NCBI RefSeq assembly: GCF_054482595.1 | Contig: NZ_CM137008.1 | DNA length: 64,000 nucleotides | Strand: one strand, 5' to 3' | Shown: positions 20,409 to 64,000 of the stretch, one piece after another | Position numbering within the stretch: the stretch's first letter is position 1 | Layout of the letters: every line of letters begins with the position of its first letter | Notes under the pieces: model-generated | Told to the model about the DNA's origin: nothing | What the model saw: only the letters and a program-made list of their open reading frames with translations | The model's database searches: none | Made by a program: the position numbers and the translations under genes

Positions 20409-20469
20409 ATCGCAGATAGCAAAAAAGCGCCTTTAGGGCGCTTTTTTACATTGGTGGGTCGTGCAGGAT
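20409..20469 (-). repeat. Distal copy of a 61-bp direct repeat: lysV 3'-terminal 18 nt plus downstream terminator (att-like scar)
   Basis: Identical to 20565..20625; contains tRNA-Lys 3' end (revcomp ATCCTGCACGACCCACCA) and the hairpin aaaagcgccctaaaggcgctttttt. Confidence 0.85.
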
Positions 20470-20564
20470 GACTCGCTTCGCTCGCCCTTCGGGCCGTCGC
20501 CGCGAGCGGCTCCGTTGTTTCGCTGCGCTCAACTCGAACCTGCTGCAGGTTCGAATCTTTGAGT

Positions 20565-20625
20565 ATCGCAGATAGCAAAAAAGCGCCTTTAGGGCGCTTT
20601 TTTACATTGGTGGGTCGTGCAGGAT
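20565..20625 (-). repeat. Proximal copy of the 61-bp direct repeat (overlaps the 3' end of intact lysV and its terminator)
   Basis: Exact 61/61 match to 20409..20469. Confidence 0.85.
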
Positions 20626-20683
20626 TCGAACCTGCGACCAATTGATTAAAAGTCAACTGCTCTACCAACTGAGCTAACGACCC
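20608..20683 (-). tRNA. lysV: tRNA-Lys (anticodon UUU)
   Basis: Reverse complement reads GGGTCGTTAGCTCAGTTGGTAGAGCAGTTGACTTTTAATCAATTGGTCGCAGGTTCGAATCCTGCACGACCCACCA. Confidence 0.97.
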
Positions 20684-20687
20684 GAAG

Positions 20688-20763
20688 TGGTGGGTGATGA
20701 CGGGATCGAACCGCCGACCCCCTCCTTGTAAGGGAGGTGCTCTCCCAGCTGAGCTAATCACCC
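20688..20763 (-). tRNA. valY: tRNA-Val (anticodon UAC)
   Basis: Reverse complement reads GGGTGATTAGCTCAGCTGGGAGAGCACCTCCCTTACAAGGAGGGGGTCGGCGGTTCGATCCCGTCATCACCCACCA; 4-nt spacer to lysV. Confidence 0.97.
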
Positions 20764-20809
20764 ACTTCGGTACTTCACATTGTTACAAGAAATTTAGCTG
20801 GCGAGAAAG

Positions 20810-20885
20810 TGGTGGGTGATGACGGGATCGAACCGCCGACCCCCTCCTTGTAAGGGAGGTGCTCTCCCAGCTGAGCTAATCACCC
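20810..20885 (-). tRNA. valX: tRNA-Val (anticodon UAC)
   Basis: Identical 76-nt tRNA-Val copy. Confidence 0.97.
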
Positions 20886-20929
20886 ACTTCTCAATTTCTT
20901 GCTACACGGCGGAGACTACATAAAGTAGT

Positions 20930-21005
20930 TGGTGGGTGATGACGGGATCGAACCGCCGACCCCCTCCTTGTAAGGGAGGTGCTCTCCCAGCTGAGCTAAT
21001 CACCC
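20930..21005 (-). tRNA. valU: tRNA-Val (anticodon UAC)
   Basis: Identical 76-nt tRNA-Val copy; first gene of the tRNA operon. Confidence 0.97.
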
Positions 21006-23704: not shown

Positions 23705-23780
<76 letters not shown>

Positions 23781-23819
23781 AATTTTGCACCCAGCAAATT
23801 TGGTACGTAAACGCATCGT

Positions 23820-23895
<76 letters not shown>

Positions 23896-52616: not shown

Positions 52617-55600
52617 TTAGTCATTTTGCTGACAGAAAACAGCAATCTCCTGGTCCAGCTCTGCAATGTGTTCTTTTACAGAGTTCAGCAACTGAAGAAT
52701 TTCAGGCTTACTGTCATCTGAAACAGGTGTTATTTCTAACTGATGGCTAATATTAATCAACTTTTGCAAATTCAGGATGTTAGCCGCACCGTGGATGCGA
52801 TGAATACATTGATGGAAAGTTCTGTTATCGCCAGCTTCTAGTGCATGAAACGCAGCGGGTAGATCTTTATGCGTTTCATGCTGGAAAGTCATGAGAATCT
52901 CCTGCATCAGTTGTAGATCGTTCGCCGTATTATTTTTCAGGGCTTCGATATCAAGGTGGCGATACTGAGGTGCAATATGCGCAACCTGGTGTAACTGACT
53001 TAAATGTGTTTTCAGTACATCCAGGGTCAACGGTTTGAACAAACATAAGTTCATGCCGCAATTTAACCCTTTTTCACGTTCGTTAGCCTGTGCGTTGGCT
53101 GTAAGCCCCCAGATGGGTAAGGAAGAATTTTGCTCACGGAGTTTGCGAGTCAACTCAAAACCATCCATATTCGGCATATTAACGTCAGTAATAAGCAGAT
53201 CATAATGTTGCATACTGACTTTGTGTAGCGCTTGCACACCATCAGTGGCTTCATCAACATCATATCCTAATAGATTTAGCTGGCGTTTGAGTAATAGCCT
53301 GTTGGTCGGATGATCATCCGCGATTAATATGCTCAACTTTTCAGGTAGTGTGATGGGTTGTTCTGCTTTTGCCTCGACAGTCGCCACTTGTTGGATAATT
53401 TCTACCGGGATTGTGATCGTAAATGTTGTTCCTATGCCTGGATGACTTTCTAATGACAAATCACCCTGCATGTTTTTAATTAATTCTTTGCAGATCATTA
53501 AGCCTAAACCAGAACCTGTTTGCTGACGACCTGCACTTGTTTGGCTATAGCGTTTAAACAGTTGTTGTTGTTCTTCCTGCGATAATCCACTTCCAGAATC
53601 CATAATCGTCATTTTGATTACAGCGTGGTTGTCATCAATGTGAACCAGGGAGGTCGTAATTTTTACTGCCCCCTCGGTGGTAAATTTGAGAGCATTACTC
53701 AGTAAATTTGATAAGACCTGCTTAAACGCCTGAGGGTCGATCTTAACCAGGTAATGTTCAGGAAACGTACTGCTGCAACTTAATGCGATCGATTTGCTTG
53801 CAGCAATCGCACCGAAAGAGTGACAAGTGTTCTGGACTAAAGTAGGGATATCGACCCATTGTGGTTGAAGTTGATAGTTACCCGATTCAATTTTGTCGAC
53901 ATCAAGGATTTCACCAATTAAGCCGAGGAGTGATTGTCCGGTGGCGTAGGCAAGTGAAATCGCCTCCACCCGTTGCTCCTTGCTAAGACCAGAACCCGAC
54001 AGAAGTTCCAGGAAGCCCATAATGGAGCTTATTGGTGTTCTTATTTCGTGACTCATTGTTGCCAGAAACTGACTTTTTGCGACAGTTGCATTGATCGCTT
54101 TATTTCTCTCTACTTCGAGTGCATGAATTAAATCACGCGTCTCGGTAATATCTTGCCAACCACAAATATAAACAGCATGATCGCTGGCTGGCAGATTGCA
54201 TAATGTATGCCAGTGATTAATGCATCTTTTCTCGATGCCATTATCAATTTCAAATACCTGTGTGTATATTGTTCGATTTTCTTTCGTTTCTGCTGTGACT
54301 TCATGCGCATTAGAAAAAACATCTTTAAAGGGTGATTCACTGTTTTCTAATGGCAACATTGCATTTTTGTAGTAATCAGCAGTGAAATAATGTTCAAATG
54401 CACTATTGTGACTAATGACATTACCTTGCCAGTTTACAACATAAGTTGGATTCGGTAAGGAGTCCGAGAGCGCTTTCCGGAATGATATTTGGTTTTCTAA
54501 ATCACCCTGAATGACTTTACGACGACGAACTGAGCGTAACAGGTAGAATCCCCATAAAAGGCTACTGCCAACTAATAAAACGGATAATGTCGTAACAATA
54601 TAAAATTGCTCGCTATAGAGGTCCCATGTGTCAATGGTCACATTGGGCATTTTAATCCATTTTTCGGTCAGGCGCAGAACTTCGCTTGGGGGGATTGCAT
54701 TCAGTGCTTTATTAATAATATCCTTAAGTTCCGGTTCTCCGCGAGGAAAAGCGAACGAAAGCGATGCATTCGGAACGCCGGGAATAAGAAAATGATACAG
54801 TTCATTAGGATAGTAATGGTCGATCATGTAACGCGAATTTAACTGTGTCGCGACCAGAGCATCAAGTTCGCCTTCCTTGACCTTGTGAAATGCAGCGCTG
54901 GCGTTATCGACTTTTATCCACTCTACCTCCGGATACATCTCTTTTAATTGCGAATGAAGCTCATAATAATATGGAATGGCAACTTTCATTCCTTTTTTTA
55001 ATGTTTGTTCACTGTCAGGCGCTTTTTGCATGACAAAAACGTAAGGCGTTGTTATGAAGGCTTCAGCAAATAAAACATTATTTTCTCTATCTTCACTATA
55101 AATAGCACCGGGTAATATATCCCATCCGCCGGGATTCAGCTGTGTTCCAGCATGGATATTGTGTGAAACGGTGATCGGAGAAAAATTTAAACCTGTTTGC
55201 AAAGTAATAATATTAAGAATATCCCCCATAACGCCCCGAACCGAGCCATTTTCATCCGTCATAGAATAGGGAGGGGAGTAAGGATTTTCCAGCACCTTTA
55301 AATCGGGATGCTGCTTAATCCATTGTTTTTCATGTTCAGTGAGTTCTAATGGTTTGTTCAGAAAGGCCAGGTTTCCTGTATCAAGCCAATTTTGTGATAC
55401 TTCATAGCGAACTTCATTTGTCAAAGCATCAACAAATCGATTGAGTACTTCATTAAGAACGACAGATTCTTTTCTGGTCAAGAAAAAATTATATTGACGC
55501 GGTGAGTTATAATATTTCACTACATTTAAGGAGTGAGTGAAATAGCGGGAAATCATACTGCTGGTAATGATGTTACTACCAATAAAGTAATCATTCTGTC

Positions 55601-56210
55601 CGGCTGAGACGGATGCTAATGCCTGATATAAATTTGTAAAAGAGATAATTGTTGCTTTTGGAAATGATTGATGAATTACCTCGTCAGGGGGATAATTTGC
55701 TACTCGAGCAATATTTACTGGTTTTGATGAGGTAAGCGGTCGCATTGAATCGTGAAGGGTGGTGACCAGCGCCGGAAAGGTAATTATCAGTGGTTTGGTT
55801 GCAGCAATGTCATCATTAAGAGGCGGCGAAGCAACTAAATGTGATAACACTATATCGACTTCACCTTCTTCCAGCGCGTCCATTGCTTTTTGATGATCGG
55901 CGTATTCCCGGAGTGTTAATTTGATATTTAACGCTCTTTTTAAAAGATTTAAATAATCAGCATTAATACCACGCACCCGTTGCTGCGAATCGGTATGCAA
56001 CAACGTAGCCGTTTGGGACTTGTGTACTGCAATCACAAGATTTTTTTTGCTCGCTAACCAACGTAATTCCTTGTTGCTCAGACGTAGTGGATCAAGTGTG
56101 ACACGGTTGTTACTACTGATGCCACGATATTCGATGTAATCTTCGTCTGCGAAACTTATGGTCGACCAAAGACCACAACAGAGAAGAAAAATATAGGGTA
56201 AAAACTTCAT
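52617..56210 (-). CDS. evgS: Hybrid sensor histidine kinase EvgS (two periplasmic binding domains, PAS, HK, receiver, HPt)
   Basis: 1197 aa; H-box SHEIRTPISSIMG, receiver ILIADDHPTNRLLL; matches EvgS. Confidence 0.95.
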   Translation of the reverse strand: MKFLPYIFLLCCGLWSTISFADEDYIEYRGISSNNRVTLDPLRLSNKELRWLASKKNLVIAVHKSQTATLLHTDSQQRVRGINADYLNLLKRALNIKLTLREYADHQKAMDALEEGEVDIVLSHLVASPPLNDDIAATKPLIITFPALVTTLHDSMRPLTSSKPVNIARVANYPPDEVIHQSFPKATIISFTNLYQALASVSAGQNDYFIGSNIITSSMISRYFTHSLNVVKYYNSPRQYNFFLTRKESVVLNEVLNRFVDALTNEVRYEVSQNWLDTGNLAFLNKPLELTEHEKQWIKQHPDLKVLENPYSPPYSMTDENGSVRGVMGDILNIITLQTGLNFSPITVSHNIHAGTQLNPGGWDILPGAIYSEDRENNVLFAEAFITTPYVFVMQKAPDSEQTLKKGMKVAIPYYYELHSQLKEMYPEVEWIKVDNASAAFHKVKEGELDALVATQLNSRYMIDHYYPNELYHFLIPGVPNASLSFAFPRGEPELKDIINKALNAIPPSEVLRLTEKWIKMPNVTIDTWDLYSEQFYIVTTLSVLLVGSSLLWGFYLLRSVRRRKVIQGDLENQISFRKALSDSLPNPTYVVNWQGNVISHNSAFEHYFTADYYKNAMLPLENSESPFKDVFSNAHEVTAETKENRTIYTQVFEIDNGIEKRCINHWHTLCNLPASDHAVYICGWQDITETRDLIHALEVERNKAINATVAKSQFLATMSHEIRTPISSIMGFLELLSGSGLSKEQRVEAISLAYATGQSLLGLIGEILDVDKIESGNYQLQPQWVDIPTLVQNTCHSFGAIAASKSIALSCSSTFPEHYLVKIDPQAFKQVLSNLLSNALKFTTEGAVKITTSLVHIDDNHAVIKMTIMDSGSGLSQEEQQQLFKRYSQTSAGRQQTGSGLGLMICKELIKNMQGDLSLESHPGIGTTFTITIPVEIIQQVATVEAKAEQPITLPEKLSILIADDHPTNRLLLKRQLNLLGYDVDEATDGVQALHKVSMQHYDLLITDVNMPNMDGFELTRKLREQNSSLPIWGLTANAQANEREKGLNCGMNLCLFKPLTLDVLKTHLSQLHQVAHIAPQYRHLDIEALKNNTANDLQLMQEILMTFQHETHKDLPAAFHALEAGDNRTFHQCIHRIHGAANILNLQKLINISHQLEITPVSDDSKPEILQLLNSVKEHIAELDQEIAVFCQQND

Positions 56211-56214
56211 GTGG

Positions 56215-56829
56215 TTAGCCGATTTTGTTACGTTGTGCGAATGTGTAAAGATCCATCAGTGATTTACATTCTAATTTTTCCATCAGGCGACTTTTATAAG
56301 TGCTGACAGTTTTGTTGCTGATGAACATTTTTTCAGCAATGTCATTATTATCCTTGCCATCAAGAATATAGCGCATGACACTAATTTCTTGTTTCGATAA
56401 GGAGTCGAGTTTTTGCTGGTCGGACGTTAAACTTCCAACAAACCGGTTGAGAGAGAAGGGGAAATAGCAGTAGCCATTTTTTGCAGCTTCAATAGCCGCA
56501 ATGATATTGTTCATGCCTTCTTTTTTACTCACGAAACCATTAGCGCCAGCATCAGCACAATGTTTCCCGTAAAAATGGTCATTTTTAGCGGAGACGATAA
56601 TAATAATTCCGCTATATTGGCGCTTCCTCAGCGTTTCTAACACCTGGATACCGTTAACTCCGGGGATATCGACATCAATGATGACGATATCAGGCTTAAG
56701 TGTTTCCACCCGCTGAACGGCACTTCCGCCTTCAGTCAACTCTGCTAAGATTTCAATATCGTTTTTGATCAATAAATTACGAATTGCTGCGATAGCAAGA
56801 GGATGGTCATCAATAATTATTGCGTTCAT
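56215..56829 (-). CDS. evgA: Response regulator EvgA (NarL/FixJ family)
   Basis: 204 aa; MNAIIIDDHPLAIAAIRNLL receiver plus LuxR-type HTH. Confidence 0.95.
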   Translation of the reverse strand: MNAIIIDDHPLAIAAIRNLLIKNDIEILAELTEGGSAVQRVETLKPDIVIIDVDIPGVNGIQVLETLRKRQYSGIIIIVSAKNDHFYGKHCADAGANGFVSKKEGMNNIIAAIEAAKNGYCYFPFSLNRFVGSLTSDQQKLDSLSKQEISVMRYILDGKDNNDIAEKMFISNKTVSTYKSRLMEKLECKSLMDLYTFAQRNKIG

Positions 56830-57244: not shown

Positions 57245-58408
57245 GTGGAACAGATTAATTCAAATAAAAAACATTCTAACAGAAGAAAATACTTTTCTTT
57301 ATTGGCGGTAGTTTTATTTATTGCGTTTTCAGGTGCCTATGCCTATTGGTCAATGGAATTAGAAGACATGATTAGTACAGATGACGCCTATGTCACGGGG
57401 AATGCAGATCCAATTTCTGCACAAGTCTCAGGTAGTGTCACTGTCGTTAATCATAAAGATACGAACTACGTTCGACAAGGTGACATTTTAGTTTCACTGG
57501 ATAAAACTGATGCCACTATCGCACTCAATAAAGCTAAAAATAATCTGGCAAATATTGTTCGGCAAACGAATAAACTGTACTTACAGGATAAACAATACAG
57601 TGCCGAAGTCGCTTCAGCACGTATTCAGTATCAACAATCTTTAGAAGATTATAACCGTCGTGTGCCTTTAGCGAAGCAGGGGGTTATTTCAAAAGAAACG
57701 CTGGAGCATACCAAAGATACGTTAATAAGTAGCAAAGCGGCATTGAATGCCGCTATCCAGGCTTATAAAGCGAATAAAGCTTTAGTAATGAACACACCAT
57801 TAAACCGTCAGCCACAAGTCGTGGAAGCGGCGGATGCAACCAAAGAAGCCTGGTTGGCGCTTAAACGTACGGATATTAAGAGTCCGGTTACCGGCTATAT
57901 TGCCCAGAGAAGTGTTCAGGTCGGCGAAACAGTGAGCCCCGGACAATCGTTAATGGCTGTCGTACCGGCACGTCAAATGTGGGTTAATGCCAACTTTAAA
58001 GAAACACAACTCACGGATGTACGGATTGGTCAATCGGTCAATATTATCAGCGATCTTTATGGTGAAAATGTTGTGTTTCATGGTCGGGTGACAGGGATCA
58101 ATATGGGAACCGGCAATGCGTTCTCCTTATTACCTGCACAAAATGCGACAGGGAACTGGATCAAAATCGTTCAGCGTGTACCGGTTGAAGTTTCTCTTGA
58201 TCCAAAAGAACTCATGGAACACCCCTTGCGCATTGGTTTATCGATGACTGCAACTATTGATACGAAGGACGAAGACATTGCTGAGATGCCTGATCTGGCT
58301 TCAACCGTGACCTCCATGCCTGCTTATACCAGTAAGGCTTTAGTTATCGATACCAGTCCGATAGAAAAAGAAATTAGCAACATTATTTCGCATAATGGAC
58401 AACTTTAA
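57245..58408 (+). CDS. emrK: Multidrug efflux membrane fusion protein (EmrA paralogue)
   Basis: 387 aa; N-terminal TM anchor then coiled-coil/HlyD fold; matches EmrK. Confidence 0.93.
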   Translation: MEQINSNKKHSNRRKYFSLLAVVLFIAFSGAYAYWSMELEDMISTDDAYVTGNADPISAQVSGSVTVVNHKDTNYVRQGDILVSLDKTDATIALNKAKNNLANIVRQTNKLYLQDKQYSAEVASARIQYQQSLEDYNRRVPLAKQGVISKETLEHTKDTLISSKAALNAAIQAYKANKALVMNTPLNRQPQVVEAADATKEAWLALKRTDIKSPVTGYIAQRSVQVGETVSPGQSLMAVVPARQMWVNANFKETQLTDVRIGQSVNIISDLYGENVVFHGRVTGINMGTGNAFSLLPAQNATGNWIKIVQRVPVEVSLDPKELMEHPLRIGLSMTATIDTKDEDIAEMPDLASTVTSMPAYTSKALVIDTSPIEKEISNIISHNGQL

Positions 58409-59946
58409 TGGCAATCACTAAATCAACTCCGGCACCATTAACCGGTGGGACGTTATGGTGCGTCACTATTGCATTGTCATTAGCGACGTTTATGCAAATG
58501 TTGGATTCCACTATTTCTAACGTCGCAATACCGACAATATCTGGCTTTCTGGGAGCGTCAACAGACGAAGGCACCTGGGTTATCACCTCGTTTGGCGTAG
58601 CAAATGCCATTGCGATCCCTGTTACCGGCAGGCTGGCACAAAGAATAGGCGAATTAAGGTTATTTTTACTTTCAGTCACTTTTTTTTCGCTGTCTTCCTT
58701 AATGTGTAGTTTATCGACCAATCTTGATGTTCTGATATTTTTTAGAGTCGTTCAGGGGTTAATGGCGGGGCCGTTAATTCCACTGTCACAGAGTTTATTA
58801 TTAAGGAATTATCCACCAGAAAAAAGGACATTTGCTCTGGCATTATGGTCAATGACCGTGATTATCGCTCCGATATGTGGGCCGATATTGGGCGGCTATA
58901 TTTGTGATAACTTTAGCTGGGGTTGGATATTTTTAATCAATGTCCCTATGGGGATTATCGTCCTGACATTATGCTTAACCTTACTTAAAGGAAGAGAAAC
59001 TGAGACTTCACCGGTCAAAATGAATCTACCAGGACTGACCCTGTTAGTGCTCGGTGTTGGTGGCTTGCAAATTATGCTTGATAAAGGGCGCGATCTGGAT
59101 TGGTTCAACTCGAGTACAATAATAATATTAACAGTAGTATCAGTTATTTCTCTGATCTCTTTAGTTATTTGGGAGTCGACCTCAGAGAACCCGATTCTTG
59201 ATCTCAGTTTGTTTAAGTCCCGTAATTTCACCATTGGTATAGTGAGTATCACATGCGCGTATTTATTTTACTCTGGAGCGATCGTCCTTATGCCGCAGTT
59301 ACTCCAGGAAACGATGGGGTATAATGCGATATGGGCCGGACTTGCTTATGCGCCCATCGGCATCATGCCACTATTAATTTCACCTTTGATAGGACGTTAT
59401 GGCAACAAAATAGACATGCGGTTGTTAGTGACATTTAGTTTTTTGATGTATGCGGTTTGCTATTACTGGCGTTCTGTGACATTTATGCCAACGATTGATT
59501 TTACAGGCATCATTTTGCCACAGTTTTTCCAGGGATTCGCCGTTGCCTGTTTCTTTTTACCCTTAACAACGATTTCGTTTTCAGGGTTGCCAGATAATAA
59601 ATTTGCCAATGCCTCGAGTATGAGTAATTTTTTTCGTACCTTGTCAGGATCAGTTGGTACGTCGTTGACAATGACGCTGTGGGGACGACGCGAATCGTTA
59701 CACCATAGTCAGTTGACAGCAACCATCGATCAATTTAACCCCGTGTTTAATTCATCGTCACAAATTATGGATAAATACTATGGTTCGCTTTCAGGAGTTC
59801 TTAATGAAATTAATAATGAAATAACCCAGCAGTCACTTTCTATTTCTGCAAATGAGATTTTCCGTATGGCGGCTATTGCTTTTATCTTACTTACGGTTTT
59901 GGTGTGGTTTGCGAAACCGCCGTTTACAGCGAAAGGCGTTGGGTGA
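58408..59946 (+). CDS. emrY: MFS multidrug efflux pump (EmrB paralogue, 14-TM)
   Basis: 512 aa; start overlaps emrK stop; matches EmrY. Confidence 0.93.
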   Translation: MAITKSTPAPLTGGTLWCVTIALSLATFMQMLDSTISNVAIPTISGFLGASTDEGTWVITSFGVANAIAIPVTGRLAQRIGELRLFLLSVTFFSLSSLMCSLSTNLDVLIFFRVVQGLMAGPLIPLSQSLLLRNYPPEKRTFALALWSMTVIIAPICGPILGGYICDNFSWGWIFLINVPMGIIVLTLCLTLLKGRETETSPVKMNLPGLTLLVLGVGGLQIMLDKGRDLDWFNSSTIIILTVVSVISLISLVIWESTSENPILDLSLFKSRNFTIGIVSITCAYLFYSGAIVLMPQLLQETMGYNAIWAGLAYAPIGIMPLLISPLIGRYGNKIDMRLLVTFSFLMYAVCYYWRSVTFMPTIDFTGIILPQFFQGFAVACFFLPLTTISFSGLPDNKFANASSMSNFFRTLSGSVGTSLTMTLWGRRESLHHSQLTATIDQFNPVFNSSSQIMDKYYGSLSGVLNEINNEITQQSLSISANEIFRMAAIAFILLTVLVWFAKPPFTAKGVG

Positions 59947-60053
59947 TGGTAAAAGCAGGGGGTTATAGCGGGTAAGACCGGGGATCTTAAGTCTGCGCCA
60001 TCGGCAGCATCGCTCACCCAGGGAAAGGATTGCGATGCTGCGTTGAAACGTTA

Positions 60054-61382
60054 TTAACGGCCTTTTGCCAGATATTGATTCATCTCTTCTTCCGGCACCA
60101 TTCCACCTCCCGTCGCCCACACCAGATGAGTGGTATTACGCAGTTGTTCTGCGCTGAAACCGTGCATCTGTTGGTAACTTACTGATGCACACACGCGCTG
60201 AGGTCCGGTCATACCCGCCAGTGCCGAAGGTTCAAGACGAATACCTTCTTCCTGCGCCAGCCAGCCAAGCATGTCATACATGGTTTGATCGCTAAGGGTA
60301 TAGAAGCCATCCAGCAGACGCTCCATTGCCCGCCCGACAAAGCCTGATGCGCGACCAACTGCAAGGCCATCCGCTGCGGTAAGGTTGTCGATACCAATAT
60401 CCTGAACAGAAATCTGATCGTGTAATCCTGTATGGATGCCTAACAGCATACAAGGGGAGTGCGTTGGTTCGGCAAAAAAGCAGTGAACATGATCGCCAAA
60501 CGCCAGTTTAAGTCCGAATGCGACGCCACCAGGACCACCGCCAACACCACACGGCAGATAGACAAACAGAGGGTTATCAGCATCGACGATACGGCCTTGC
60601 TGGGCAAATTGCGCTTTAAGACGCTGGCCAGCGACGGAATACCCAAGGAACAACGTGCGGGAATTTTCGTCATCAATAAAGAAACAGTTCGGGTCAGACT
60701 GCGCTGCTTTACGTCCTTCCTCGACGGCAACACCATAATCTTGCTCATATTCCACGACCGTAACGCCATGGCTGCGCAGTTTCGCTTTTTTCCATGCCCG
60801 GGCATCAGCAGACATATGCACTGTCACCTTAAAGCCAATGCGGGCGCTCATAATGCCGATTGATAACCCCAGATTTCCGGTTGAGCCCACAGCAATGCTG
60901 TATTGGCTAAAGAACTGTTTAAACTCCGGAGAAAGCAGTTTGCTGTAGTCATCATCAAGCGTCAGCAACCCCGCTTCCAGAGCCAGTTTTTCTGCGTGTG
61001 CCAGAACTTCATAAATCCCGCCGCGTGCTTTTATGGAGCCGGAAATGGGCAAATGGCTATCTTTTTTCAGTAACAGTTGCCCGCTGATCGGTTGTTGATA
61101 TTCCTTTTCCAGCCGTTTTTGCATAGCCGGAATGGCAACCAGTTCTGATTCAATAATCCCCCCAGTAGCAGCAGTTTCAGGAAATGCTTTTGCCAGATAG
61201 GGTGCAAAACGGGATAAGCGCGCATGGGCGTCCTGAACATCCTGTTCGGTCAGGCCAACATAAGGTAAACCTTCAGCCAATGAGGTCGTGCCAGGATTAA
61301 ACCAGGTGGTTTCTTTAAGAGCAACCAGATCCTTTACCAACGGATACTGGGCGATGAGCGAGTTCATTTTAGCGTTTTCCAT
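60054..61382 (-). CDS. dsdA: D-serine dehydratase (PLP-dependent)
   Basis: 442 aa; PLP lysine context SGSIKARGG; matches DsdA. Confidence 0.95.
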
Positions 61383-61399
61383 AGTACGTCTCTTTGCGC

Positions 61400-61630
61400 T
61401 TAGATGATAAATGACAGCAGGAATGTGCCCGCCAGAGCGACGACTGAAGCGATAAATGTCGCTGTCGTATAGTATTTAAATGTTTCATTGAGCGTAGCGC
61501 CGCAATATTGCTTCACCAGCCAGAAAAGCGAGTCCGTAACGATCGTGCAGCCAATTGCGCCTGAACCGATAGCAATCGCAATAATTTCCGGGCTGATGTC
61601 GGGATACAGCGGCAGCACAATGATCCATAT
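61400..61630 (-). pseudogene. dsdX: 5'-truncated remnant of D-serine permease dsdX (GntP family), C-terminal ~75 codons only
   Basis: Minus-strand frame reads ...[76 protein letters not shown] then stop 17 nt upstream of dsdA; frame closes with a stop at 61631..61633, and unrelated sequence follows; a full dsdX would be ~445 codons. Confidence 0.7.
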
Positions 61631-61848
61631 TTATATTTTCTTCTCCAGGTTGGCGATGCCAGTTGGCATGTTTTTCTTACTTGCCTATATGGTTACTCGT
61701 TGGCGAGAACAGAGGCGGAATTGGGGACAATTGGCCGGGAATTATTGTTATTTTTTATTGTATTGCCGTGTCAGGTGATAGGGCGTTGGATCTCGCCAGT
61801 GACGTCTGTTTCTGCTACAGTGCCCGTTTTACGACAAACGGCTTGGGT

Positions 61849-62844
61849 ATGGCTTCATTAAAGGATGTCGCACGCCTGGCGGGAGTGTCGATGATGACAG
61901 TCTCCCGGGTGATGCATAATGCAGAATCTGTGCGTCCTGCAACGCGTGACCGCGTATTGCAGGCAATCCAGACCCTGAATTATGTTCCTGATCTTTCCGC
62001 CCGTAAGATGCGCGCTCAAGGACGTAAGCCGTCGACTCTCGCCGTGCTGGCGCAGGACACTGCTACCACTCCTTTCTCTGTTGATATTCTGCTTGCCATT
62101 GAGCAAACCGCCAGCGAGTTCGGCTGGAATAGTTTTTTAATCAATATTTTTTCTGAAGATGACGCTGCCCGCGCGGCACGTCAGCTGCTTGCTCACCGTC
62201 CGGATGGCATTATCTATACTACAATGGGGCTGCGACATATCACGCTGCCTGAGTCTCTGTATGGTGAAAATATTGTATTGGCGAACTGTGTGGCGGATGA
62301 CCCAGCGTTACCCAGTTATATCCCTGATGATTACACTGCACAATATGAATCAACACAGCATTTGCTCGCGGCGGGCTATCGTCAACCGTTATGCTTCTGG
62401 CTACCGGAAAGTGCGTTGGCAACAGGGTATCGTCGGCAGGGATTTGAGCAGGCCTGGCGTGATGCTGGACGAGATCTGGCTGAGGTGAAACAATTTCACA
62501 TGGCAACAGGTGATGATCACTACACCGATCTCGCAAGTTTACTCAATGACCACTTCAAATCGGGCAAACCAGATTTTGATGTTCTGATATGTGGTAACGA
62601 TCGCGCAGCCTTTGTGGCTTATCAGGTTCTCCTGGCGAAGGGGGTACGTATCCCGCAGGATGTCGCCGTAATGGGCTTTGATAATCTGGTTGGCGTCGGG
62701 CATCTGTTTTTACCGCCGCTGACCACAATTCAGCTTCCACATGACATTATCGGGCGGGAAGCTGCATTGCATATTATTGAAGGTCGTGAAGGGGGAAGTG
62801 TGACGCGGATCCCTTGCCCGCTGTTGATCCGTTGTTCCACCTGA
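61849..62844 (+). CDS. cscR: LacI-family sucrose operon repressor
   Basis: 331 aa from internal ATG at 61849 (MASLKDVARLAGVSMMTVSRVMHN..., LacI HTH) plus periplasmic-binding-like sugar domain; matches CscR. Confidence 0.88.
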   Translation: MASLKDVARLAGVSMMTVSRVMHNAESVRPATRDRVLQAIQTLNYVPDLSARKMRAQGRKPSTLAVLAQDTATTPFSVDILLAIEQTASEFGWNSFLINIFSEDDAARAARQLLAHRPDGIIYTTMGLRHITLPESLYGENIVLANCVADDPALPSYIPDDYTAQYESTQHLLAAGYRQPLCFWLPESALATGYRRQGFEQAWRDAGRDLAEVKQFHMATGDDHYTDLASLLNDHFKSGKPDFDVLICGNDRAAFVAYQVLLAKGVRIPQDVAVMGFDNLVGVGHLFLPPLTTIQLPHDIIGREAALHIIEGREGGSVTRIPCPLLIRCST

Positions 62845-62851
62845 TATTATG

Positions 62852-64000
62852 CTAACCCAGTTGCCAGAGTGCTCCATGTTGCACCACAGCCACTCCGTGG
62901 GAGGCATAAAGCGACAGTTCCCGTTCTTCTGGCTGCGGATAGATTCGACTACTCATCACCGCTTCCCCGTCGTTAATAAATACTTCCACGGATGATGTAT
63001 CGATAAATATCCTTAGGGCGAGCGTCTCACCCTGCGGGAGGAGAATACTACGGTAGCCGTCTAAATTCTCGTGTGGGTAATACCGCCACAAAACAAGTCG
63101 CTCAGATTGGTTATCAATATACAGCCGCATTCCAGTGCCGAGCTGTAATCCGTAATGTTCGGCATCACTGTTCTTCAGCGCCCACTGCAACTGAATCTCA
63201 ACTGCTTGCGCGTTTTCCTGCAAAACATATTTATTGCTGATTGTGCGGGGAGAGATAGATTGATGCTGCTGGCGTAACGACTCAGCTTCGTGTACCGGGC
63301 GTTGTAGGAGTTTGCCATTGCTCTCTGATAGCTCACGCGCCAGCGTCATGCAGCCTGCCCAGCCTTCACGTTTTGAGGGCATTGGCGATTCCCACATATC
63401 CATCCAGCCGATAACAATACGCCGACCATCCTTCGCTAAAAAGCTTTGTGGTGCATAAAAGTCATGCCCGTTATCAAGTTCAGTAAAATGCCCGGATTGT
63501 GCAAAAAGTCGTCCTGGCGACCACATTCCGGGTATTACGCCACTTTGAAAGCGATTTCGATAACTGTATCCCTCGGCATTCATTCCCTGCGGGGAAAACA
63601 TCAGATAATGCTGATCGCCAAGGCTGAAAAAGTCCGGACATTCCCACATATAGCTTTCACCCGCATCAGCGTGGGCCAGTACGCGATCGAAAGTCCATTC
63701 ACGTAATGAACTGCCGCGATAAAGCAGGATCTGCCCCGTGTTGCCTGGGTCTTTCGCCCCGACTACCATCCACCATGAGTCGGCTTCACGCCACACTTTA
63801 GGATCGCGGAAGTGCATGATTCCTTCTGGTGGAGTGAGGATCACACCCTGTTTCTCGAAATGAATACCATCCCGACTGGTAGCCAGACATTGTACTTCGC
63901 GAATTGCATCGTCATTACCTGCACCATCGAGCCAGACGTGTCCGGTGTAGATAAGTGAGAGGACACCATTGTCATCGACAGCACTACCTGAAAAACACCC
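62852..64000 (-). CDS. cscA: Sucrose-6-phosphate hydrolase / invertase (GH32), C-terminal part; N-terminus beyond window end
   Basis: Frame open from window edge to stop at 62852; GH32 motifs FRDPKV and WECPD; edge translation ...DGCFSGSAVDDNGVLSLIYTGHVW... matches CscA. Confidence 0.88.
   Translation of the reverse strand, partial: GCFSGSAVDDNGVLSLIYTGHVWLDGAGNDDAIREVQCLATSRDGIHFEKQGVILTPPEGIMHFRDPKVWREADSWWMVVGAKDPGNTGQILLYRGSSLREWTFDRVLAHADAGESYMWECPDFFSLGDQHYLMFSPQGMNAEGYSYRNRFQSGVIPGMWSPGRLFAQSGHFTELDNGHDFYAPQSFLAKDGRRIVIGWMDMWESPMPSKREGWAGCMTLARELSESNGKLLQRPVHEAESLRQQHQSISPRTISNKYVLQENAQAVEIQLQWALKNSDAEHYGLQLGTGMRLYIDNQSERLVLWRYYPHENLDGYRSILLPQGETLALRIFIDTSSVEVFINDGEAVMSSRIYPQPEERELSLYASHGVAVVQHGALWQLG

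Follow-up and report, generated by a model that had tools for sequence, protein, structure and literature searches.

An intact dsdA beside a dsdX remnant and the sucrose genes cscR and cscA in Escherichia coli

How does an intact gene for D-serine ammonia-lyase (dsdA) come to stand with no more than a fragment of dsdX and no dsdC beside it, and what level of expression can it be expected to have there? The question is raised by the end of a 64,000-nt stretch of DNA (hereafter the window), in which an earlier note had recognized dsdA as an orphan. The orphan dsdA is one face of the csc/dsd dimorphism, a face shown by about half of E. coli and already known: the arrangement has been described since 1979–2002, is typed by routine PCR, and experiments have addressed both the silence and the reactivation of its dsdA. 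The point of interest that is left is the persistence of the orphan as an intact gene, with or without a role that is independent of DsdC.

Anatomy of the dsdA locus

The dsdA gene (60054–61382, minus strand) starts with ATG and encodes 442 amino acids plus a stop codon. Its product aligns without gaps to DsdA of K-12, with 440 of 442 residues identical (the differences are V316I and A392T), and is a full-length match to the solved structure of the E. coli enzyme (PDB 3SS7). Membership of the D-serine ammonia-lyases is indicated by (i) an end-to-end match to the equivalog model TIGR02035/NF002823 (profile positions 1–431 of 431), at 814 bits against a curated cut-off of 368 bits, and (ii) the motif SGSIK(118)AR, including Lys118, the PLP-binding lysine in the structure of E. 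coli DsdA. The gene is separated from the upstream reading frame by a native spacer of 17 nt (61383–61399, minus strand), the same as in K-12 by alignment and by K-12 coordinates. The earlier note had described dsdA as intact, with a normal start and the usual spacing; that description, including its coordinates, is accurate.

On the other side of dsdA lies core-genome DNA. The flanking gene, emrY (58408–59946, plus strand), has the same name and position in K-12 and in XH990, the closest sequenced relative of the window (seven differences, consisting of six mismatches and one gap, over about 63 kb). The neighbourhood upstream of emrY, within the last 12 kb of the window, contains evgS (52617–56210, minus strand), evgA (56215–56829, minus strand) and emrK (57245–58408, plus strand). 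In the window, emrK is an intact open reading frame of 387 codons; the sole gap between the window and XH990 falls in this gene, which is 1 nt shorter and frameshifted according to the XH990 annotation. Across the full window, Rfam and tRNA scans returned nothing that bears on the dsd/csc locus. An ordinary core-genome RNA cluster was seen at 20452–21005 and 23705–23895, comprising an RtT RNA, a tRNA-Lys(UUU), three tRNA-Val(UAC) and two tRNA-Ala(GGC).

Upstream of the spacer lies dsdX' (61400–61618, minus strand), a 219-nt remnant that, by K-12 alignment and the DsdX profile, consists of the last 72 codons of dsdX and the stop codon. It covers only profile positions 374–445 of the 445 in the DsdX model (NF007395, GntP family) and scores 146 bits, against a cut-off of 618 bits; a full-length DsdX permease, of about 445 amino acids and above that cut-off, is not encoded in the window. 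The earlier note had called the reading frame upstream of dsdA a dsdX remnant with neither a start nor a promoter of its own, and both parts of this claim are borne out. An in-frame TAA precedes the first dsdX-derived codon by five codons, ATG is absent, and the sole start-like codon is a GTG that spans the junction, at which no obvious Shine-Dalgarno sequence was seen. The identical sequence in XH990 is annotated by PGAP as a partial pseudogene with a missing N-terminus. With regard to promoters, no sigma-70 consensus promoter was predicted on either strand of 59900–64000, a negative that carries little weight because the same scan also missed the real cscR promoter.

In the alignment with K-12, near-identity extends from dsdA across the 17-nt spacer and dsdX' up to position 61617, and beyond this point the sequences are unrelated. 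The recombination breakpoint between dsdX' and the foreign DNA lies at 61617–61618 (...GGCAGCA/CAATGATCC..., the slash marking the breakpoint). Among 11 csc+ loci picked evenly along the identity ranking (95–100% identity), O157:H7 and O111:H11 among them, the breakpoint is identical to the base in all 11, and the dsdX' remnant measures 219 nt in every one. This uniformity of breakpoint and remnant points to a single ancestral event as the origin of the junction.

The replacing DNA, which the earlier note had left unnamed, is by its sequence the left end of cscRAKB, the sucrose island of the chromosome. It begins with 230 bp of non-coding DNA without a K-12 counterpart (61619–61848), which make up the island end and the region upstream of cscR. 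The cscR gene itself (61849–62844, plus strand), encoding the LacI-family repressor of the sucrose (csc) genes, lies within a longer open reading frame that starts with TTG; the PGAP start in XH990 maps to 61849. Its product matches LacI-family profiles and is labelled 'sucrose operon repressor CscR' in several genomes. Converging on cscR is cscA, encoding sucrose hydrolase (invertase), of which the window holds the 3' 1149 nt (62852–64000, minus strand); the gene is cut by the window end and would, by the XH990 annotation, end at about 64285. The part present matches profile positions 85–447 of 447 in TIGR01322 (scrB_fam), and is co-directional with dsdA. Past the window end, XH990 continues with the remaining part of cscA, followed by cscK, cscB, a small DUF4942 fragment, the tRNA-Arg gene argW, and yfdC.

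The resulting order is that of a csc-type argW-dsd region: an intact dsdA beside emrY, then a 3' dsdX fragment, then cscR divergent from dsdX' and convergent with cscA, with cscK, cscB and argW placed through XH990 only. As the earlier note had stated, there is no dsdC upstream; by open reading frames and profile matches within the window, the site is occupied by cscR and cscA. With K-12 homology ending at 61617 and no dsdC in the window, the divergent dsdC and DsdC-activated promoter that precede dsdX in a dsdCXA-type locus are missing.

Two small features of the csc part deserve mention. Firstly, the convergent stop codons of cscR and cscA are only 7 nt apart (62845–62851), and no terminator-like hairpin was predicted in this gap on either strand; the short gap and the lack of a predicted terminator suggest that the two transcripts probably overlap in antisense. 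Secondly, the window lacks 12 bp (CGTTGAGAATAT or CGTCGAGAATAT) at 61783^61784 that are present in O157, O111 and most sampled csc+ genomes. The deletion site is flanked by a direct repeat of CGTTG, and the same deletion is carried by XH990 and two further loci (L005 and L006), and occurs in four of 15 csc+ matches sampled across the spread. Since the site lies ~65 nt upstream of the cscR ATG, the deletion could alter cscR expression.

Frequency and exchange of the csc and dsd states

The dsdA-dsdX'-cscR-cscA arrangement is present in 2660 of 5426 complete E. coli genomes, as counted with a 2951-nt query (dsdA, dsdX', cscR and the end of cscA) at a coverage of 80% or more. In the genomes outside these 2660, the query matched in its dsdA and 3' dsdX part only. 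The alternative content, dsdC and the 5' part of dsdX, was found in 2770 genomes. The two sets overlap, by a rough count, in 49–80 genomes (about 2–3% of csc+), and the csc+ and dsdCX+ states are nearly mutually exclusive. The complete-genome search found no dsdC or dsdX on plasmids. A chimeric query, joining the csc part of the window to K-12 dsdC, gave 10 plasmid matches to its csc part, indicating that csc-like genes also reside on mobile replicons.

The dsdA alleles of the sampled loci (L002–L019) group by strain background and not by csc/dsd state. Three csc+ loci have an allele identical to that of K-12; the csc+ allele that diverges most (L003) has its closest counterpart in a dsdCXA+ locus (L019). 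This clustering suggests that the csc and dsd states have been exchanged between lineages; we infer that the segment has been swapped repeatedly, by homologous recombination between conserved flanks with a crossover near the junction. One further locus, E. coli O145 RM8995-C1 (L015, 1750–2267), is of the dsdCXA type and carries a dsdX that is annotated as frameshifted: a different way to lose the pathway for D-serine, in a serogroup with EHEC commonly among its members.

The switch between the two states sets two useful phenotypes, namely sucrose use on the one hand and D-serine tolerance or use on the other. A link with niche preference has been drawn, with gut and LEE-positive pathogens leaning towards csc+, and urinary and meningitis strains towards dsd+. 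The dimorphism beside argW is credited by PMC4366372, PMC7486766 and PMC13054288 to Jahreis 2002 and Moritz & Welch 2006, and the mutual exclusivity is traced to 1979 by Stephens et al. (PMC11251922). In EDL933, csc substitutes for dsdC and part of dsdX, and carriage of LEE and of dsdCXA rarely coincides (PMC4366372). For commensal isolates and isolates from Crohn's disease, a 2026 paper reports that the sucrose and D-serine phenotypes are inverse; its authors typed the locus with a dsdA/cscR/dsdX triplex PCR, and found csc+ isolates to be consistently D-serine-negative (PMC13054288).

Expression and retention of the orphan dsdA

What becomes of dsdA at such a junction has been studied in EHEC. 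The O157:H7 EDL933 derivative TUV93-0 has a dsdA whose expression is silent or low and does not respond to D-serine, and D-serine is toxic to EHEC and unusable as a carbon source (PMC7486766, PMC13012123, PMC4366372); a 2026 paper describes the EHEC dsdA allele as intact, yet incapable of being upregulated (PMC13012123). O'Boyle et al. 2020 showed that deletions spanning cscR or the whole csc locus render dsdA active, such that D-serine is consumed (PMC7486766). With the deletions across cscR, dsdA is reached by read-through from the cscA promoter. In LCV2, a mutant with 1,120 bp deleted across cscR, dsdA expression rose 33-fold above wild type, and a reporter covering cscAp to dsdA gave 2,001 RFU after the deletion versus 63–134 RFU for the wild-type fragment (PMC7486766). 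According to the same work, dsdA is not directly repressed by CscR, and the authors ascribe its activation mainly to the altered chromosomal context (PMC7486766). Two expectations of the earlier note are upheld by analogy with these strains, which have the same junction: that dsdA would be poorly expressed without DsdC, and that D-serine tolerance would be affected.

The alternative offered by the earlier note, that a new promoter in the junction region drives dsdA, fares less well. A relaxed scan of the minus strand of the junction returned poor candidates only, such as CTGACA-19-AACAAT at 61774–61744, and sites of this kind were rejected. The promoter-scan negatives agree with the published reporter, in which the wild-type fragment gave low fluorescence only (PMC7486766). 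A promoter that has been placed near the gene, 'dsdAp', lies 115 bp upstream of the dsdA ATG (PMC7486766); in the window, these 115 bp (61383–61497, inside dsdX') are 100% identical to K-12. A terminator-like site at 61434–61415 (minus strand) was also considered as a barrier made by the rearrangement, and was discarded: it belongs to the native dsdX 3' end, and K-12 has the identical site and co-transcribes dsdXA.

Taken together, the end of the window is very probably a csc-type allele of the E. coli argW-dsd region, with an intact dsdA whose expression would be low, basal and non-inducible. In a single ancestral recombination, dsdC, the regulatory region between it and dsdX, and the initial 1119 nt of dsdX would have been replaced by cscR-cscA-cscK-cscB, leaving the last 219 nt of dsdX and the complete dsdA. 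Having lost both the DsdC-activated promoter (dsdXp) and the activator DsdC, dsdA would be confined to a low, non-inducible basal level, probably supplied by a weak promoter ~115 nt upstream of its ATG, in the retained 3' end of dsdX. Since cscA and dsdA are co-directional, a deletion that takes out cscR should reactivate the silent gene by placing dsdA behind the cscA promoter, which CscR represses. Observed here are the locus anatomy, its breakpoint, its population frequency and the lack of dsdC in XH990; the silence of dsdA, the toxicity of D-serine and the reactivation come from the published experiments on EHEC (O157:H7), and the source strain is expected to behave alike. By the same analogy, the strain is predicted to be sucrose-positive, to show no growth on D-serine, and to be D-serine-sensitive, with inhibition in minimal medium. 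Such sensitivity would be mildly notable if the source resembles XH990, given that XH990 is a urine isolate and urine is rich in D-serine.

Could dsdA nevertheless be served from elsewhere, or switched on under particular conditions? A second, full dsdCXA locus would supply DsdC and DsdX in trans, so that D-serine catabolism would be normal and dsdA no orphan at all. Some genomes do carry more than one dsd locus: the search returned 198 extra dsdCX places, the 49–80 csc+ genomes with dsdCX have both states, some K1/NMEC strains have two dsd loci, and two copies are reported in NMEC CE10 (PMC7486766). The chimeric query speaks against such a locus here. Its first-ranked match was XH990, at 100% identity and in a single place in the record, which indicates that the XH990 chromosome carries no dsdC at any other place; 38 of the 40 closest csc alleles likewise show a single place, and two show a second place in the record. 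The search for a second dsdCXA copy that the earlier note had called for thus yields none in XH990, which stands as proxy for the source genome, and the outcome that would have overturned its reading—a functional dsdC and dsdX acting in trans—was seen neither there nor, for dsdC, on any plasmid. Given also that both states coincide in so small a share of csc+ genomes, and that even with DsdC in trans the dsdA of the window would lack the DsdC-dependent dsdX promoter, a second locus is highly improbable. Conditional expression, either from a junction promoter or by sucrose-induced read-through from cscA via the antisense strand of cscR, would make D-serine detoxification sucrose-inducible. The layout is compatible with read-through: cscA, dsdX' and dsdA are co-directional, and no intrinsic-terminator-like site was predicted on the minus strand from the cscA stop (62852) to dsdX'. 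Moreover, loss of cscR makes EHEC D-serine-tolerant and cscR in trans restores sensitivity (PMC7486766), and orphan dsdA shows statistics like those of purifying selection (see below). Yet the low GFP output of the wild-type cscAp-dsdA fragment, with activation arising mainly from context (PMC7486766), and the D-serine-negative phenotype of csc+ isolates (PMC13054288) argue against substantial read-through; the ~1.2 kb of untranslated antisense RNA across cscR would likely meet Rho termination and collide with cscR transcription, and the junction has no consensus promoter. We consider expression of this kind quite improbable.

The gene might instead be a functionless relic drifting towards a pseudogene, and intact merely by short time or by re-import of good alleles. 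Among the 11 distinct csc+ loci sampled, dsdA is full length in 10, and frameshifted in the remaining one, E. coli O157 AR-0429 (L004, 405–1732), by loss of 1 nt from a stretch of six G at codon ~74. This frameshift could reflect either a homopolymer sequencing error or real decay of the orphan gene. The occurrence of K-12-identical alleles in csc+ backgrounds, which indicates exchange between contexts, and EHEC's inability to utilize D-serine (PMC7486766) also favour a relic. Against it stand, besides the 10 full-length genes, (i) the mean pairwise dN/dS of dsdA, which comes to 0.064 for the 10 csc+ alleles and to 0.063 for the 8 dsdCXA+ alleles, at a dS of about 0.08–0.10 (about 0.08 among csc+), (ii) the recovery of a fully functional enzyme upon deletion (PMC7486766), and (iii) the raised basal activity of the recA promoter after disruption of dsdA in EHEC, which hints at a residual function (PMC13012123). 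At face value, the constraint on the orphan dsdA equals that on its functional counterpart, and this fits a useless gene poorly unless alleles shuttle between contexts by recombination. We rejected dN/dS as a decisive test of selection: dsdA alleles follow strain background, so most of their divergence accumulated outside the orphan state, and because they move between contexts the ratio cannot separate a gene that is still selected from one that arrived recently. On balance, a functionless relic is unlikely. The converse idea is that selection keeps dsdA in csc+ E. coli for a DsdC-independent role, be it basal removal of endogenous or trace D-serine or expression through sucrose-induced cscA read-through. 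The equally low dN/dS in the two classes hints at such a role, though recombination could give the same result, and we hold the idea to be distinctly doubtful; if true, it would link sucrose availability to D-serine detoxification.

Comparison with known csc and dsd loci

The window shares the order emrY, dsdA, dsdX', cscR, cscA with the csc-type loci of O157:H7 EDL933/TUV93-0 and EC3132. With O157, O111 and other csc+ genomes it shares the base-level breakpoint and an intact dsdA. Over 59950–62900, the window shares 98.5% identity with the O157 csc allele; that allele contains the 12 bp that the window lacks at 61783^61784, so that the regions upstream of cscR are not identical, but this is an allelic detail only.

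Compared with the dsdCXA operon of K-12 and UPEC, the window retains dsdA, the spacer of 17 nt and the terminal 219 nt of dsdX at 98.6–100% identity to K-12, and lacks dsdC, the divergent promoter region between dsdC and dsdX, and the initial 1119 nt of dsdX. With these missing, inducible expression and DsdX-mediated uptake would be lost.

The laboratory-evolved EHEC mutants LCV2 and LCV10B, in which dsdA was reactivated (PMC7486766), set out from the same locus architecture. The window differs from them in that it is undeleted: cscR is complete (61849–62844), the 3' end of cscA is intact, and there is no promoter fusion. These mutants show what the silent dsdA of the window could become.
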